This document shows, one piece after another, positions 2,998 through 24,314 of a stretch of DNA of 64,000 bases (its first letter is position 1; every line of letters starts with the position of its first letter). Made by a program: the position numbers and the translations under genes. The stretch is taken from contig OY970368.1 of assembly GCA_963718615.1 (NCBI GenBank), forward strand, positions 3,904,001-3,968,000, in the 5' to 3' direction. The notes under the pieces are model-generated. The model did no database searches. It had not been told where the DNA came from and saw only the letters and a list, made by a program, of their open reading frames with translations. Source of the stretch: an uncultured cyanobacterium. Its GTDB lineage: Bacteria > Cyanobacteriota > Cyanobacteriia > PCC-9006 > JAAUQQ01.

Positions 2998-3236
2998 TTA
3001 TACTGAGACATGCCTGATAATACCTGAACAGGGGTGTTATCGGGCGTCGCTGCTGGGATAATACCTGGAAACGGGTTGTTATCATGCAGCTTTGCCTGAT
3101 AATACCCAACAGGGGGTGTTATTCAGCATGATTGCCTGGATAACTTGCTGTGACTAGGGATTATACGGCGTTGGCGCTTGAAAATACCGGAAGGAGGGAG
3201 TTATCAGGCATCGTGCATGAGAATAAGTTGTTAGCT
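2998..3236 (+). repeat. Array of five palindromic units at 41-bp period, ending in a GTT crossover (long attC/attI-like site)
   Basis: GATAA-type boxes start at 3016, 3057, 3098, 3139 and 3180 (GAAAA in the last), each followed 16-17 nt later by TTAT(C/T/A). An outer perfect inverted repeat ATGCCTGATAA (3010-3020) / TTATCAGGCAT (3201-3211) is present. The array ends AATAAGTT-GTTAGCT (GTTAGCT at 3230-3236). Confidence 0.85.
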
Positions 3237-3364: not shown

Positions 3365-3733
3365 ATGTCAGAACAGAAGCCTTGGCTTTCTATGCTGTCC
3401 TTATTAGGATTTCAGGTGAATGCAGCTATCGAAAAAGGGCATGGAAATAAAATTTCATTCCATGACATTTACAAGGGCTTAGAAGAAAGAAATTTGTTTG
3501 AACTGTTAGACGAAAAGCTTCCTGGAGTTTTAGATCTCAGTCTTTTCCTTGAACGTAACGAGGGAGCTTCCCTTGAGCAGCGAGATGGACTTCTAAATGC
3601 TTTAAGCGATGCTGCGTCAGGTATGGAGGGAAGAGAAAGAAGAAAATATGGTATTGAGAGTTCAGGTTTGTCTTTACTGATGGCTTATATTTTAGAGGCG
3701 ATCCAGCAAGAATATTGGGTAAGTGCTAGATAG
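3365..3733 (+). CDS. Hypothetical protein (cassette 1)
   Basis: 122-aa ORF, AT-rich, the only substantial ORF between the two recombination sites. Confidence 0.75.
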   Translation: MSEQKPWLSMLSLLGFQVNAAIEKGHGNKISFHDIYKGLEERNLFELLDEKLPGVLDLSLFLERNEGASLEQRDGLLNALSDAASGMEGRERRKYGIESSGLSLLMAYILEAIQQEYWVSAR

Positions 3734-3818: not shown

Positions 3819-3906
3819 GGCTAACAAACCCAATGCACACCGACCGCCGAGAGATTATCGGTTAGAGTTCAAAGTTATTTGTGGCGGGTGATTGGGAACG
3901 TTATGC
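3819..3906 (+). other. attC integron recombination site
   Basis: R'' GGCTAAC (3819-3825). L'' CCCAAT(G)CAC pairs with L' GTGATTGGG, leaving one extrahelical base. Inner stem CCGCC/GGCGG. R' GTTATGC (3900-3906). Length is 88 bp. Confidence 0.88.
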
Positions 3907-3994
3907 CGCAAGTCCTTGGTGGGGGCAGTTCTTAAGGCTTATCTTCTAGTAGCCAGAGCTAAAATACTGAAAAGTTATTGATTTAGGGACAAGA

Positions 3995-5215
3995 ATGGTT
4001 GACGGAATAGATGAAAACCAGAGAAACTATTGGAACCAGTCCTCGGTAGAGAGGGGCTTATTAGATCTATCTGTTGTACTCTCAACCCGTGATATTACCG
4101 CTGGTAATCAATTTGCAATCTTTGTTTTAGTTAAAAATCCTTTTGATAAACCAGTTTGGATACGCCAAGTACATGTAAGTTTACCTAGTGAACTTAAATT
4201 GGCAAATTTTCTAGAAAAGCAGAGCAAGAACTCTAAACGTAAAAATGAAACAAGAAAAAATCTGGAAAGGTTGAGGGAAGAGAAAAGAGTTCGACTAGAA
4301 GCTAAGATCAATCTTCTAAATCAAGAAATCAAGAAAGTAGTTAAAGGTTTAGAGAGTAGTAAATCTCTAGAAGAATCAGATAAAAACTTTTTATACAAAA
4401 TAGAGTCACGGTTAGCAGAAGTAAAGCAGGAGTTGGAATCCCTGAATGAAGCAGATGAGGCAAGAATTTATATTGATGGCAAAGCGGCTGTAAGCAACTT
4501 TAAGGTTGTTTCTAGGCGACCCAGAATTTATATTGATAATGCTTCAGCCGTTTCTTATCTTGATGTCTACGATCCTGAATCTTTCCAAGAGGTGTCTGCC
4601 CAAGCAAGAACAGTAGCTTTAGAGAGTTCTCTTCCAAGGAATACAGCTTTACAACCCGGCAGCACTGCCGTTTATACAGCAGTTTTGTATGTTGAAAAAT
4701 CTCTTATTTTTACCCCGTCACATTATCGCTTGCAATTTAATGTTAATTATAGTTTTCATTCCAAAAAGAAGGGTTTGTTAGAGGAAACGACTTCTCGAGG
4801 TAGTTATGAGGAGGGAGAGGAAGGAATATTTACAAACACAGTGGCTCATGAAATATCAATCAGACCTTCAGTTTATTCGGTAATTATTGGAGCAGGTTTA
4901 GGAGGCTTTACAGGTTCCGTTGCTCGCTTGCTTCAAATTACGCCTATAGAGAAGTGGCAAGCATTTTCAAACGTAGATACTTTTACTTCTTTGATTGCTG
5001 TTACGGTTGCAGTAATACTCAGTGGCATTGCAGTTGTGTTTATGGCAAGGAAGTCAGAAGCGCAATCATTTGTATCAGTAGAGGATTTTTGGGGTGGGCT
5101 ATTGATTGGTTTTCTTGTTGGATATACTGGGACTTCCTTCTTTGAGCAGTTAACAGGCGTTACGAATCCGACAATAGTTAATCCAACACCAAGGGTTTCA
5201 CCTTTGCCACAGTAA
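3995..5215 (+). CDS. Hypothetical membrane protein with a coiled coil and about 3 C-terminal TM helices (cassette 2)
   Basis: 406 aa. Beta-rich N-terminus, charged heptad region at about aa 75-155, and hydrophobic segments VIIGAGLGGFTG, LIAVTVAVILSGIAVVF and FWGGLLIGFLVGY. Confidence 0.8.
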   Translation: MVDGIDENQRNYWNQSSVERGLLDLSVVLSTRDITAGNQFAIFVLVKNPFDKPVWIRQVHVSLPSELKLANFLEKQSKNSKRKNETRKNLERLREEKRVRLEAKINLLNQEIKKVVKGLESSKSLEESDKNFLYKIESRLAEVKQELESLNEADEARIYIDGKAAVSNFKVVSRRPRIYIDNASAVSYLDVYDPESFQEVSAQARTVALESSLPRNTALQPGSTAVYTAVLYVEKSLIFTPSHYRLQFNVNYSFHSKKKGLLEETTSRGSYEEGEEGIFTNTVAHEISIRPSVYSVIIGAGLGGFTGSVARLLQITPIEKWQAFSNVDTFTSLIAVTVAVILSGIAVVFMARKSEAQSFVSVEDFWGGLLIGFLVGYTGTSFFEQLTGVTNPTIVNPTPRVSPLPQ

Positions 5216-5270
5216 TATTTAATTATAATGCTATGAAGATGTTTACTACTTTGGATTCAAAGCGGCATAA

Positions 5271-5586
5271 TCGGGATAGGGAATGCGATTCGTTGCAGAT
5301 GAATAACGGTGCAAGCCCGTAAATAACTCTGCCAGCTTGGCTTCCAAACATGAAGCACTCTCAAGAGCTGAACTGTCCTCTTGATGAGGGTGAAAGTCCC
5401 TTCCATCAAACTCGGATGTGACTCCTGATCTACCCACGATGACCCGACTCGGAATTCGGGAGGTCGAAGCTGGGAGCAGGGCGCAATCAGACACTCATTA
5501 GACCTCTTGCATGAATGCTAAACAGCGTTCTGGTCGAGTTCCAAATTGTAGAGGGAAGCAATCAGGTTAAAGCGAAAGCCAAATCC
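5271..5586 (+). mobile_element. Structured non-coding segment resembling an IS110-family left end (bridge-RNA candidate), transposase lost
   Basis: Hairpins ACGG-TGCAAGC-CCGT (5306-5320), TCAAGAG/CTCTTGA (5361-5384) and GAGGG-TGAAAGT-CCCTT (5386-5402), plus a long-range helix 5332-5345/5459-5473. These are followed by a purine-rich RBS-like stretch and a basic VKAKAKSK frame. The family call rests on recalled resemblance only. Confidence 0.5.
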
Positions 5587-5676
5587 AAAGTCCTGTTGCC
5601 GTCCTTTTCCATAAACCGTGCACAGAATCTTGAGCGTCATCAAGTCGATGACCACCTACACCATCAGCGTATGCTT
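5587..5676 (-). pseudogene. IS5-family (ISL2/IS1381-like) transposase fragment
   Basis: The minus frame reads KHTLMV*VVIDLMTLKILCTVYGKGRQQDF, resembling the conserved HTLKxQVV...I.C...GKGR.HDF segment. It has an in-frame stop at 5656-5658. Confidence 0.65.
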
Positions 5677-5757
5677 ACTGTTATTGGCAAGACGTTCAAA
5701 CCTCCCTGGTTTGATTCCACTGTAACGACAAAATTCGGCAGGAATGAAAACAGCTCA

Positions 5758-6363
5758 TTACCAAATTCGATCCAGACCCAGAACAAATCCCGGCATCACC
5801 TCACCACAATCGATCGAACTGGGTGACTCCAACACCACCGCATCCTGTCCAGGGCGATAAATCTCAACCTGTTGACTCTGAGGATCGATTAACAGCCCCA
5901 ATCTCACCCCCAGCCGTCGATACTCCGCCATCTTCTCCTGCAACAATTTCAAATTATCCGTCGCCGACCGCAACTCAATCACAAAATCCGGCACAACCGG
6001 AATAAACCCAACAATGTCCACGCCCGCCAGTCGTGACTTCTCAATCCAAGACACATCCGGCGACATCTTCCCGCCCCCGCCCGCGATAAAATCATAGCCC
6101 GTCGATGAGTCAAATGTTTCGCCCAGATTAGTTTGGCGATTCCAAATCTCAACATCAGTTCCTAGACTCATATTTCTTTTGCCACTTTCACCACCCGTAG
6201 GAGGCATGACAATCAACTCTCCATCTTTTGTTAATTCCAGGCGCAACTCAGGATTATCCAAGCAAAGCTGGTCAAAGTATTCTGGGGTTACAGTGAGCTT
6301 GACATGGCTAACATTGAGTAACAGCGCATCAACCGATGATGTCGGAGCCGTAACCATGGTCAT
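5758..6363 (-). CDS. Uma2-family (DUF820) putative endonuclease
   Basis: LELTKDGELIVMPP, SPDVSWI, PDFVIELRS, KMAEY and GVRLGLLIDP motifs. Confidence 0.93.
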   Translation of the reverse strand: MTMVTAPTSSVDALLLNVSHVKLTVTPEYFDQLCLDNPELRLELTKDGELIVMPPTGGESGKRNMSLGTDVEIWNRQTNLGETFDSSTGYDFIAGGGGKMSPDVSWIEKSRLAGVDIVGFIPVVPDFVIELRSATDNLKLLQEKMAEYRRLGVRLGLLIDPQSQQVEIYRPGQDAVVLESPSSIDCGEVMPGFVLGLDRIW

Positions 6364-6710: not shown

Positions 6711-7322
6711 ATGGCAATTGCCTCTTCGCCTTCATCAGCGATCGCCAGACAAAAACTAACCCTAGCGGAGTTCCTAGATTATCAGGATGGGACTGACAAT
6801 CGCTATGAACTGGTAGAGGGGGAGTTACAACAGATGGCCATAGGGACAGGCTTGCATGGAGCCATCATAGAGTTTATCAATGATGAATTTCGCAATGAAA
6901 TCCGACGATTACAGCGACCCTGGACATCGAAGCAAGCTGCCGTTGCGATTCAGTCTCCTCGGGGCCGCCGTTGGGAGACCTGTCGTATCCCCGATGTAAC
7001 AGTCTTACCGATAGAACAATGGGAAACACTTTTGTCGAAGCAGGCAGTGATTACGCTAGATCAGCCTGTACCGACTTTGGTAGTGGAGGTGGTGAGCGAA
7101 TCTACGAAGGCTGAAGACTATCGGGCCAAGCATGCGGAATACGGCGTGTTGGAGATTCCGGAATATTGGATGATTGACCCGTTGGATGAAGTAGTGACGG
7201 TTTGTGTGTTTGAGGATGGAGGCTATACGAATCGACGGTTCGTGGGGGACGAACCCCTTCGGTCTGACATTTTTCCAGAGCTAATCCTCACTGCCGCTCA
7301 AATTCTTTCTGCACGGCGTTAA
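6711..7322 (+). CDS. Uma2-family putative endonuclease
   Basis: RYELVEGEL, RIPDVTV, LVVEVVSES and YGVLEIPEYWMIDP motifs. Confidence 0.93.
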   Translation: MAIASSPSSAIARQKLTLAEFLDYQDGTDNRYELVEGELQQMAIGTGLHGAIIEFINDEFRNEIRRLQRPWTSKQAAVAIQSPRGRRWETCRIPDVTVLPIEQWETLLSKQAVITLDQPVPTLVVEVVSESTKAEDYRAKHAEYGVLEIPEYWMIDPLDEVVTVCVFEDGGYTNRRFVGDEPLRSDIFPELILTAAQILSARR

Positions 7323-7374: not shown

Positions 7375-7959
7375 TTACCAAATTCTCTGCAAGTTCAAAA
7401 CAAACCCTGGCAACTCCGGCTCTGCGCTGACCTGATCCGGTTTCTGAAGGCAGACCACATTCTGCCCTGGACGATAGACATACACATTGTAATGTTTTCG
7501 ATCGATTAAAAACCCCAACCGACAACCCGGTTCCGCTAAATACTCCTCCATCTTTTCTTGCAAAGGCTTGAGATTATCCGACGGGGACCGCAGTTCCACA
7601 ACAAAATCGGGACAGATAGGAGCAAATCGCGATCGCAACTCCGGCTCCACACTATGCCAACGCTCCAGCGTTATCCAAGCCGCATCGGGAGAACGGTCTG
7701 CGCCCGTTGAAAGTTTAAATCCGGCACTAGAGCTAAATACAATTCCAGTTCCGTCTTGTTCTGCCCAGGCCCATAGCGGCCCAATGATTCCTGCTTCGCG
7801 ATGACCGGATTCTGAACCAACAGGGGACATAATTGAAATGACTCCATGGCGATCGCGCTCAATCCGCAGTTCCGAGTTTTCCTGACAAAACTCAAAAAAT
7901 TGTTGCTCCGTCATCCGCAGGGACGTGGGAAATTTTACGGAAAGAGAAGAAGAGAGCAT
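7375..7959 (-). CDS. Uma2-family putative endonuclease
   Basis: RSPDAAWI, PICPDFVVELRSPSD and KMEEY motifs. Confidence 0.93.
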   Translation of the reverse strand: MLSSSLSVKFPTSLRMTEQQFFEFCQENSELRIERDRHGVISIMSPVGSESGHREAGIIGPLWAWAEQDGTGIVFSSSAGFKLSTGADRSPDAAWITLERWHSVEPELRSRFAPICPDFVVELRSPSDNLKPLQEKMEEYLAEPGCRLGFLIDRKHYNVYVYRPGQNVVCLQKPDQVSAEPELPGFVLNLQRIW

Positions 7960-23526: not shown

Positions 23527-23926
23527 AGTTCTTTATATGGCTATCGTCAGAACTCACGAATCGAGAAACGCATTGCTCCGACGCCCCTGATGCAAGAAGG
23601 ATCTGAACTCCTAACTACTAAAACAGGGCAACCTGCTTTTAAAAGGGATCAGGACCCAGTCTTCGCGGAATCTACACGATTAATCCTGGCTATCTGAAAA
23701 AACGATAAACCGCTAATCGCATTGTTCCCGAGTTTTCTACGCATCCATCACCCCTCCATGGTAACCGTACACTGTGTTTCTCTTGTTACAAGTACGGTCT
23801 ATTGGTGGCCTATTCTAGAATGCGATCGCAGGGCTGGCGAAGGTCTTTGGCCCCTGAGGAGAGCGAACCCGCACCACCCCCTCATCTAGAGCCGGATGGG
23901 TAATGATTCAAACTAAATAATGGAAT

Positions 23927-24314
23927 GGAAAAGTCGGACATAAGCCGGGTTCTGTTCCCCGCTTTCCGAAGAAAACGGAGGGCAGTTATCTATCTGGGAC
24001 AGCGGTTACCCGACGCCTCAAGCGGTGCTCTCATGACGGAACAGGCAAAAGACCAACCCTTGTTCCAACGACCTTGCTCCCAACCGGGGTTTACCGAGCC
24101 AGCACCTCTCAATGCTGCTGGTGCGCTCTTACCGCACCTTTGCACCCTTACCTGTGAAGTCTAGACTTCCATCGGCGGTATGTTTCTGTGGCACTCTCCT
24201 CACGGTCACCCGCACTGGGCGTTACCCAGCAAGTTTGGTCTTTCGGGAGCCCGGACTTTCCTCAGACTGGGTCAGCGATGCCGCCCAGCCCGCAACTGCC
24301 TCGCCAACTTTTCC
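23927..24314 (-). ncRNA. rnpB: RNase P RNA
   Basis: The minus strand carries GAGGAAAGTCCGGGCTC, AGTGCCACAGAAA, GGTAAACCCCG and ACAGAACCCGGCTTAT. The P1 helix pairs GAAAAGTTGG with CCGACTTTTC. Confidence 0.97.

Follow-up and report, generated by a model that had tools for sequence, protein, structure and literature searches.

In a 64,000-nucleotide (nt) stretch of the genome of an uncultured cyanobacterium (contig OY970368.1 of assembly GCA_963718615.1, forward-strand positions 3,904,001 to 3,968,000; here, the window), mobile-element remains interrupt a recombination site (attC) of an integron-type gene cassette. The interval studied is bordered on the left by the end of an open reading frame (ORF) at 3995-5215 (+) and on the right by a Uma2-family gene (5758-6363, −; PF05685, 131.8 bits), which has its 3' end toward the interval. 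From left to right, it holds a remnant of the R'' box of the attC (5262-5269, +), the 3'-terminal 13 nt of a group IIC-attC-type intron on the opposite strand (5270-5282, −), the 5'-terminal 217 nt of a group II intron of IIB-like type, comprising part of domain I (5283-5499, +), and a patchwork of other repeats. A preliminary description of this DNA, whose motifs are all found where it placed them, including GCGGCATAA at 5262-5270, had treated 5262-5586 as one structured element: the left end of an IS110-type insertion sequence coding for a candidate bridge RNA. The evidence presented here, from homology, covariation and seven genomic copies, makes it very likely that the structured stretch is instead roughly the 5' tenth of a ∼2.2-kb group II intron, surviving as a decayed relic, and that it is no guide RNA of an IS110 element.

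The integron setting is well defined. The first attC of the window (3819-3906, +; R'' GGCTAAC, R' GTTATGC) belongs to a homogeneous family of about 10 sites in this genome, found via their conserved arms CCCATGCACACCGACCGCC and GGCGGGTGATGGGCAAC and all of the same build, with R'' followed by CCCATGCACACCGACCGCC and then by GGCGGGTGATGGGCAAC and GTTRRRY. Cassette 2 (3901-5269, +) begins with TTATGCCGC, carries the ORF at 3995-5215 (406 aa; no Pfam match above the cut-off and no NCBIfam match) and ends in the R'' remnant. Its first nine bases (3901-3909, after the G of the first attC) are complementary to GCGGCATAA at 5262-5270 at 9/9 bases, as is expected of the cassette's own R''. The proposal that an attC starts at 5262 is thereby borne out, and the genome carries, besides the attC family, an intact integron integrase gene (948656-949594, +), which scores 443.8 bits with TIGR02249, a model whose cut-off is 265. 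Four further intI loci are degraded (3859666-3860405, 4646232-4646402, 4712672-4713822 and 1907122-1907277). Several of the intron stubs described below lie 10 to 65 kb from intI loci, on the side and strand expected of cassettes at 3.84 and 4.65-4.67 Mb.

The remnant itself, GCGGCATA, is the complement of 3902-3909 and is cut after RYYYA. The same junction of RYYYA with the 13-nt tip recurs at the other six copies in this genome, in two other genomes (handles G080 and G388) and at locus L061; in copy 2244, the cassette start likewise matches the R'' (TTAGGC and GCCTA). By eye rather than by formal scan, no right arm of the interrupted attC (L'', L', R') was recognised in 5500-5760, and the site is very probably dead for recombination. 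Two other approaches to the attC question were abandoned. A home-made scanner combining an R''/R' pattern with a fold returned 177 scattered candidates, missed the first attC of the window and was discarded as uninformative. The 15-nt flank was considered as the centre of an attC of the genome's family and ruled out, with the family arms upstream of none of the seven flanks.

The stretch that follows the R'' remnant is repetitive. The genome, searched as one contig of 6,095,823 bp with 5216-5760 as the query, contains six other copies of 5268-5499 at 85 to 98% identity; six of the seven copies are 94 to 98% alike, and the 85% copy lies at 293168-293375. All seven start at the same base, reading (T/C)AATCGGGATAGGGA and then GTGCGATTCG, downstream of unrelated flanks. 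Conversely, their right ends all differ, with no common 3' boundary. The IIB-like sequence retained amounts to 188, 194, 209, 217, 226 and, twice, about 310 nt of about 2170 nt. The copies at 1.014 and 4.667 Mb continue alike to 352 nt, and copies 1014 and 4666 have one deletion junction in common, at which IIB-like nt ∼310 is joined to nt 144 of the IIC-type intron in antisense. Elsewhere, about 241 and 342 nt are retained in the two copies of G388 and about 48 nt in one metagenome contig.

The identity of the repeat is revealed by its relatives. A 232-nt query matched 5 of 61 related genomes, this one among the five, and a 352-nt form of the query matched 45 of 401 cyanobacterial genomes (E ≤ 1e-5). 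Identity to relatives in other cyanobacteria spans 72 to 97%, with 97% for the G080 copy and 72 to 83% for the copies of other genomes. In genome G029, a 502-aa reverse transcriptase (RT) ORF begins ∼350 nt 3' of the match (RVT_N, 105.3 bits; RVT_1, 122.4; GIIM, 36.0) and is directly followed by a match to the domain V-VI model RF00029 (49.6 bits; gathering threshold, 40), G029 being the one RT-bearing relative among five whose 3' part was searched against Rfam. These three parts in series make up an intron of ∼2170 nt. The best solved relative of the G029 RT is chain C of PDB entry 6me0 ("Maturase reverse transcriptase," 234.8 bits), which we take to be the Thermosynechococcus T.el4h intron ribonucleoprotein (RNP); the score of the RT against the NCBIfam group II RT/maturase model, 269.3 bits, is under the cut-off of 300. 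With the G029 RT as a tblastn query, an RT was found after the homologous 5' region at five of the seven loci fetched (in G029, G288, G134, G237 and G080), and the two G388 loci, where no RT was found, are truncated like the window copy. Thus, full copies followed by a DEDD_Tnp_IS110 transposase, which the preliminary description proposed to seek with BLASTN, are not what surrounds the homologues of 5283-5499: these precede group II RT genes instead, an arrangement that the preliminary description had itself listed as contradicting its reading.

The closest relative, in G080 (L055, contig G080:C107), matches the window copy at 97% over 232 nt and is followed by an ORF with RVT_N, RVT_1 and GIIM matches, inside which the contig ends. 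Compared with the copies of the present genome, the intron 5' region of L055 is 96 to 97.5% identical, and its host belongs to a different cyanobacterial family. The G029 relative (L021, 1-601 and 2907-3868) apparently starts within the 3' end of one transposase-like ORF, and a second such ORF comes after it; it would thus be an intron in an insertion sequence, with GTGTG and not GTGCG at its 5' end. In the genome under study, no RT-like ORF was seen in the ORF lists, inspected by eye, within 3.5 kb of any of the seven copies, the G029 RT as a tblastn query gave 0 matches at E ≤ 1e-3, and Pfam RVT_1 gave no match. By these searches and that with RF00029 (below), the genome is without a detectable group II RT or domain V.

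The boundaries and the structure of the stretch agree with this identification. In an alignment of 29 rows (the window copy and 28 relatives), the sequences of diverse relatives become similar at precisely GTGCGATTCG. All 28 relatives have G as base 1 (27 with GTGCG and one with GTGTG), and the window copy has A (ATGCG, 5283-5287). The start of similarity, the base-1 column and the covarying structure together identify 5283-5499 as nt 1 to 217 of domain I, in which the base at the 5' splice site is mutated. The left boundary, for which the preliminary description had allowed 5271 to about 5300, is fixed accordingly: the R'' remnant ends at 5269, the tip occupies 5270-5282 and the intron runs from 5283. 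To the right, homology ends at 5499 in all comparisons, leaving the window copy without the rest of domain I, domains II to VI and the RT gene. Because domain V, the branch site, the RT and the later part of domain I are missing and base 1 is mutated, this copy is unable to work as an intron.

The ∼300 nt of nested pairing noted previously fared unevenly. Folded alone, 5262-5586 is no better than its dinucleotide shuffles (z = 0.17 on the plus strand and −0.04 on the minus strand), whereas over 5283-5499 RNAalifold finds 47 consensus pairs in the 29 rows, 33 of them preserved despite changes on both sides. Among the four helices that had been singled out, GAGGG/CCCTT (98.6% of cells paired, with compensatory change in 4/5 pairs) and ACGG/CCGT (80.9%) are supported. 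The long-range helix CCAGCTT-GGCTTCC/GGAGGTC-G-AAGCTGG is weak, being paired in 65.7% of cells, compensatory in 2 of 14 pairs and in competition with strongly covarying local helices, and TCAAGAG/CTCTTGA (38.9%) is not conserved. The pairing of 5283-5499 is the inherited fold of domain I. The motif CCCGA (∼5444-5448) was considered as exon-binding site 2 (EBS2) for the 5' exon and dropped, as it is one strand of the covarying helix CCCGA/TCGGG (alignment columns 275-279 with 301-305). In the G080 copy, candidate EBS1 and EBS2 sites are placed, by eye, 3' of nt 217.

The 13 nt between the R'' remnant and the IIB-like intron belong to another retroelement. On the minus strand, they read TCCCTATCCCGAT, identical to the 3' end of an intron in genome G024. 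Of the junctions of this element, the window retains just the 3' one, which on that strand is the tip followed by TATGCCGC. The 14-mer that precedes the IIB-like intron is also found in this genome without it, at 1008728 (−) and 815475 (+), where GAATCCTCACGAATCCCC... follows. In the uninterrupted form at 1008728 (−), in which AATCGGGATAGGGA is joined directly to GAATCCTCACG..., the 386 nt onward align at 86% with the 3' 409 nt of the G024 intron; read on the opposite strand, this continuation is the 3' part of the second retroelement, which has matches in 67 of the 401 genomes. Most of its full-length matches stop exactly at ...TCCCTATCCCGAT(T), and three other copies in this genome match the IIC 3' end at 14/14 bases. 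The G024 copy (L095) is 1980 nt long and lies within an attC read on the bottom strand, with junctions ...GAATTGT/GTACG...CCCGAT/TATGCGG. It matches the Rfam models group-II-D1D4-3 (RF02001; 83.1 bits, gathering threshold 32) and D1D4-1 (RF01998; 56.3 bits, gathering threshold 35). Its ORF is frameshifted (RVT_1, 110.1 bits; GIIM, 48.1 bits). At its 3' end, a 34-nt hairpin bearing a 2-nt bulge and a hairpin bulged near its end follow one another (z = −3.54), a fold like that of domains V and VI. According to two published accounts (PMC7923331 and PMC3001079), group IIC-attC introns insert into the attC bottom strand at TTGT/T in R'', opposite to the cassettes. The site and orientation in G024 are those described, so that insertion is placed at TTGT/T in R'', facing against the cassettes.

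In copies 1014 and 4656, the 5' end of the IIC-type intron (...GGGCGTAC) is still present on the right side of the stub, and in copy 1014 the apparent rest of the attC comes after it. Fragments of the IIC-attC-type intron without a nested intron lie at 1008342-1008727 (+), 1013901-1014044 (+), 4720414-4720527, 815476-815513 and 788899-788980. A 105-aa remnant of the maturase end is among these IIC-only fragments, and no full copy of the IIC-attC-type intron was found in this genome.

These observations are best explained by an account in three steps. Cassette 2, as part of an integron-type array, once ended in a normal attC. As comparison shows, an IIC-attC-type intron then entered the bottom strand within R'' at TTGT/T, facing against the cassettes. 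Next, a second intron (IIB-like, ∼2.2 kb, with an RT/maturase) would have reverse-spliced into the opposite strand of the first, in domain VI and 13 nt from its 3' end, and would consequently face the same way as the cassettes. Finally, deletion and a transposase-related insertion, the step whose products are seen directly, removed everything but the R'' remnant at 5262-5269, the tip at 5270-5282 and 217 nt of the second intron at 5283-5499. The second step is proposed because one 5' junction recurs in the seven copies here, in G080, in the two G388 copies and in two metagenome contigs and because empty sites exist. As no 3' junction was recovered, the argument for nesting in the antisense strand of the IIC-type intron comes from that 5' junction and the empty sites. 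Four genomes were searched for the expected 3' exon, GAATCCTCACGAATCC... (antisense of IIC domain VI), and every site that turned up was without the IIB-like intron. An exact-pattern scan for a full copy gave one genome-contig record and two metagenome contigs, one with 618 nt and the start of an RT and the other with 69 nt.

Several results weigh against this account or against the identification on which it builds. For this subfamily, no full-length IIB-like intron complete with 3' junction was found. Simple random decay leaves unexplained that the seven copies keep only 188 to ∼310 of ∼2170 nt and that copies 1014 and 4666 have a deletion junction in common. At gathering thresholds, Rfam reports RNase P only in the window, and in E-value mode 5150-5800 yields three noise matches (E ≥ 1.1); no Rfam group II model matched the window fragment even at E ≤ 10. 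RF00029 has no match in this genome (150 of 326 candidates scored), and the Rfam domain V-VI model has none in the IIC-type intron. The class labels IIB-like and IIC-attC reflect the match to 6me0_C, ORF architecture and insertion site rather than phylogeny.

The alternatives differ in what they make of the stub. That 5271-5586 is the noncoding left end of an IS110/IS1111-type element, encoding a bridge (seeker) RNA able to act in trans as the guide of a DEDD recombinase, draws some plausibility from the genome, where IS110-family elements do adjoin attC sites (one of ∼1.8 kb at ∼2245200-2247010 and, within cassette arrays or close to them, six or more relatives or deleted copies), and from the fact that the element is structured and interrupts an attC. 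Yet there is no DEDD_Tnp_IS110 gene in the window, the three in the genome (at 1.81, 1.92 and 2.25 Mb) share no sequence with 5200-5800 at E ≤ 1e-3, and 5500-5586 is part of a different repeat. With homologues that precede RTs, no DEDD gene in the window and no shared DNA, there is no case for a bridge RNA at this locus, and the reading is extremely improbable here: the IS110 idea is reasonable for the genome but not for the locus. What does hold of it is that the attC was cut off by an attC-targeting mobile element and that the structured, RNA-coding end of a mobile element follows. Retention of the stub for a function, for example as a small RNA, as a promoter or terminator of the array or as a decoy for intron RNPs, is improbable too, if less so. 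It would be in keeping with the 94 to 98% likeness of six of the seven copies, with the preservation, by paired changes, of at least one hairpin in the 85% copy at 293168-293375 (ATTCG/CGAAT to ATTTG/CAAAT, by eye) and with the outward promoters that PMC3001079 reports in group IIC-attC introns. However, the ends differ in each copy with no common 3' boundary, the invariant first G has been lost from the window copy, and the 97% likeness to an RT-bearing intron in another cyanobacterial family equals the level among the copies, which fits recent arrival and not selection.

A reading closer to the favoured one concerns how the stubs were made, rather than what they are. They could be 5'-truncated or template-jumped complementary DNA (cDNA) copies of a composite, an IIC-attC intron with an antisense IIB-like intron in its domain VI; the stub would still be dead, and its origin would be a mobile intron-in-intron. 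The bottom-strand 3' end of such a composite consists of the antisense 5' end of the IIB-like intron plus the 13-nt tip, so that truncated or template-jumped cDNAs would yield stubs of just this kind. Each of the seven copies keeps the tip plus 188 to ∼310 nt (∼241 and ∼342 nt in G388, ∼48 nt in the metagenome contig), every copy sits at a different R''-like site after RYYYA, IIC-only 3' stubs with the same fixed end occur here (for example, the 38 nt at 815476-815513), and copies 1014 and 4656 also retain the 5' end of the IIC-type intron, which would be expected of retro-copies with an internal deletion. Against this, the rest of the attC (ACAA...), which should remain after a clean retro-insertion, was not recognised by eye on the right of five of the seven stubs, that of the window included; the junction common to 1014 and 4666 implies that a form lacking domain V was copied, of which a ribozyme-dead RNA is incapable alone; the carrier intron might well be inactivated by 2.2 kb inserted in its domain VI; and an intact composite was found in no genome searched. 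On balance, we regard this origin as a minority possibility, rather doubtful as it stands. The same tentative standing is given to a broader proposal, that the IIB-like introns form a lineage specialised in homing into the antisense strand of IIC-attC domain VI and that the composite is copied between attC sites and distant cyanobacteria, leaving stubs. If true, the IIB-like intron would parasitise an element that is itself parasitic on the integron, and IIC-attC introns would be able to carry cargo in domain VI or to be copied in deleted form.

Beyond 5499, the window is a patchwork of other repeats. A short repeat unrelated to the intron fragment (5499-5583, not assigned to a strand) has two other blastn copies in the genome, at 306585-306669 and 417814-417897 (87 to 89% identity), and contains the AGAGGGAAGCAATC...AAAGCGAAAGCC stretch that had been read as a possible coding remnant. 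Debris of a DDE transposase gene with its flank follows (5582-5742, −, identified by genome matches): 5582-5686 matches 1830989-1831093, within an ORF (1830954-1831538) with DDE_3, DDE_Tnp_4 and DDE_Tnp_1 matches, all weak, and 5680-5742 matches three other places in the genome. A search of 5480-5780 found no inverted repeats. Judged from these matches, 5500-5757 is repeat and transposase debris without relation to the intron fragment. The interval 5262-5586 is therefore not a single element; with the intron repeat ending at 5499 and other repeats following, it joins two unrelated things.

Elsewhere in the window, three paralogous ORFs are consecutive at 5758-6363 (−), 6711-7322 (+) and 7375-7959 (−), the first being the Uma2-family gene and the latter two alike by eye. 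A 41/82-nt periodic repeat of four to five copies (GATAATACC...GGGTGTTATC) occupies 3011-3225, with an inverted pair at 3093-3107 and 3196-3210, just 5' of the first cassette ORF (3365-3733). Finally, a bacterial RNase P RNA of class A lies at 23926-24311 (−; 250 bits, Rfam).

The annotation of the locus is thus corrected from a bridge-RNA candidate to a truncated group II intron and, as such, the candidate is not to be taken forward as a guide for a programmable recombinase. The proper place to seek a bridge RNA in this genome is the ∼340-nt noncoding left end of its IS110-family element (G000:C1:2245200-2247010, ∼1.8 kb; DEDD_Tnp_IS110, 97.5 bits; ORF 2245535-2246800), which adjoins the R'' side of an attC. 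Copies of that element lie at 1918133-1919930, 3852922-3853986, 3845755-3846752, 4716675-4717592, 4674082-4674620, 944668-945119 and 1005854-1006054; one is a 72% relative, several are internally deleted with both ends present, and all are in or near cassette arrays. The cassette arrays of this cyanobacterial genome, with its intact intI, several dead intI genes and homogeneous attC family, have been invaded at or beside attC by three kinds of element: an IIC-attC-type intron, a IIB-like intron nested on its opposite strand and an IS110-family element. Likeness across families as close as that among copies within the genome suggests recent horizontal movement of the element or of the cassettes, and the nested junction, at 97% identity in a different cyanobacterial family, would mark such traffic. 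The integron complement, the mixture of invaders and the cross-family junction should be of modest interest to researchers of integrons and retroelements. The predominance of short 5' stubs poses a small and testable question of how composites copy or decay.

Among known systems, the IS1111-attC group of IS110-family insertion sequences, reportedly described by Tetu and Holmes in 2008, is said to target attC sites; an attC-targeting element is present elsewhere in this genome, and it has neither sequence nor a gene in common with 5262-5586. The chloroplast-like, or IIB-type, RT introns represented by PDB 6me0 resemble the fragment in the GUGYG start of its relatives, in the covarying domain I and in the RVT_N/RVT_1/GIIM ORF that begins in these relatives ∼580 nt from the 5' end and precedes a domain V-VI match. 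The window copy differs in comprising nt 1 to 217 only, with a mutated base 1, no catalytic core and no ORF, and the subfamily differs in having, as its 5' exon, another intron's domain VI in antisense. The element of the tip resembles the IIC-attC introns of the S.ma.I2 lineage (PMC3001079, PMC7923331), whose occurrence in attC bottom strands is well documented, in its attC bottom-strand site at TTGT/T in R'', its anti-cassette orientation and its length of ∼2 kb. As in those introns, the 105-aa remnant ORF stops after the maturase-like part, with no endonuclease-like tail (by eye). It differs in its cyanobacterial host and sedentary-type attC family, in that only 13 nt are left and in having no score with the Rfam domain V-VI model.

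The closest precedent for the second intron is in Sonbol and Siam 2021 (PMC7923331), the one report of group IIB introns in cassette arrays (UHB.I2 and H.ha.F1/F2) oriented with the cassettes. The likeness extends to a non-IIC intron in an array, in cassette orientation and beside an attC, and to truncated copies in a cluster of attC sites lacking integron integrases (CALIN). In those cases, the full intron directly follows the attC and the fragments are 3' pieces; here, in contrast, the intron sits within an IIC-attC remnant in R'' and all fragments are 5' pieces. Among the titles and abstracts listed by literature searches, which are weak evidence, none describes a IIB-like intron nested antisense in an IIC-attC intron. 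The locus preserves a decayed member of known element types, uncommon in its host and in its arrangement.

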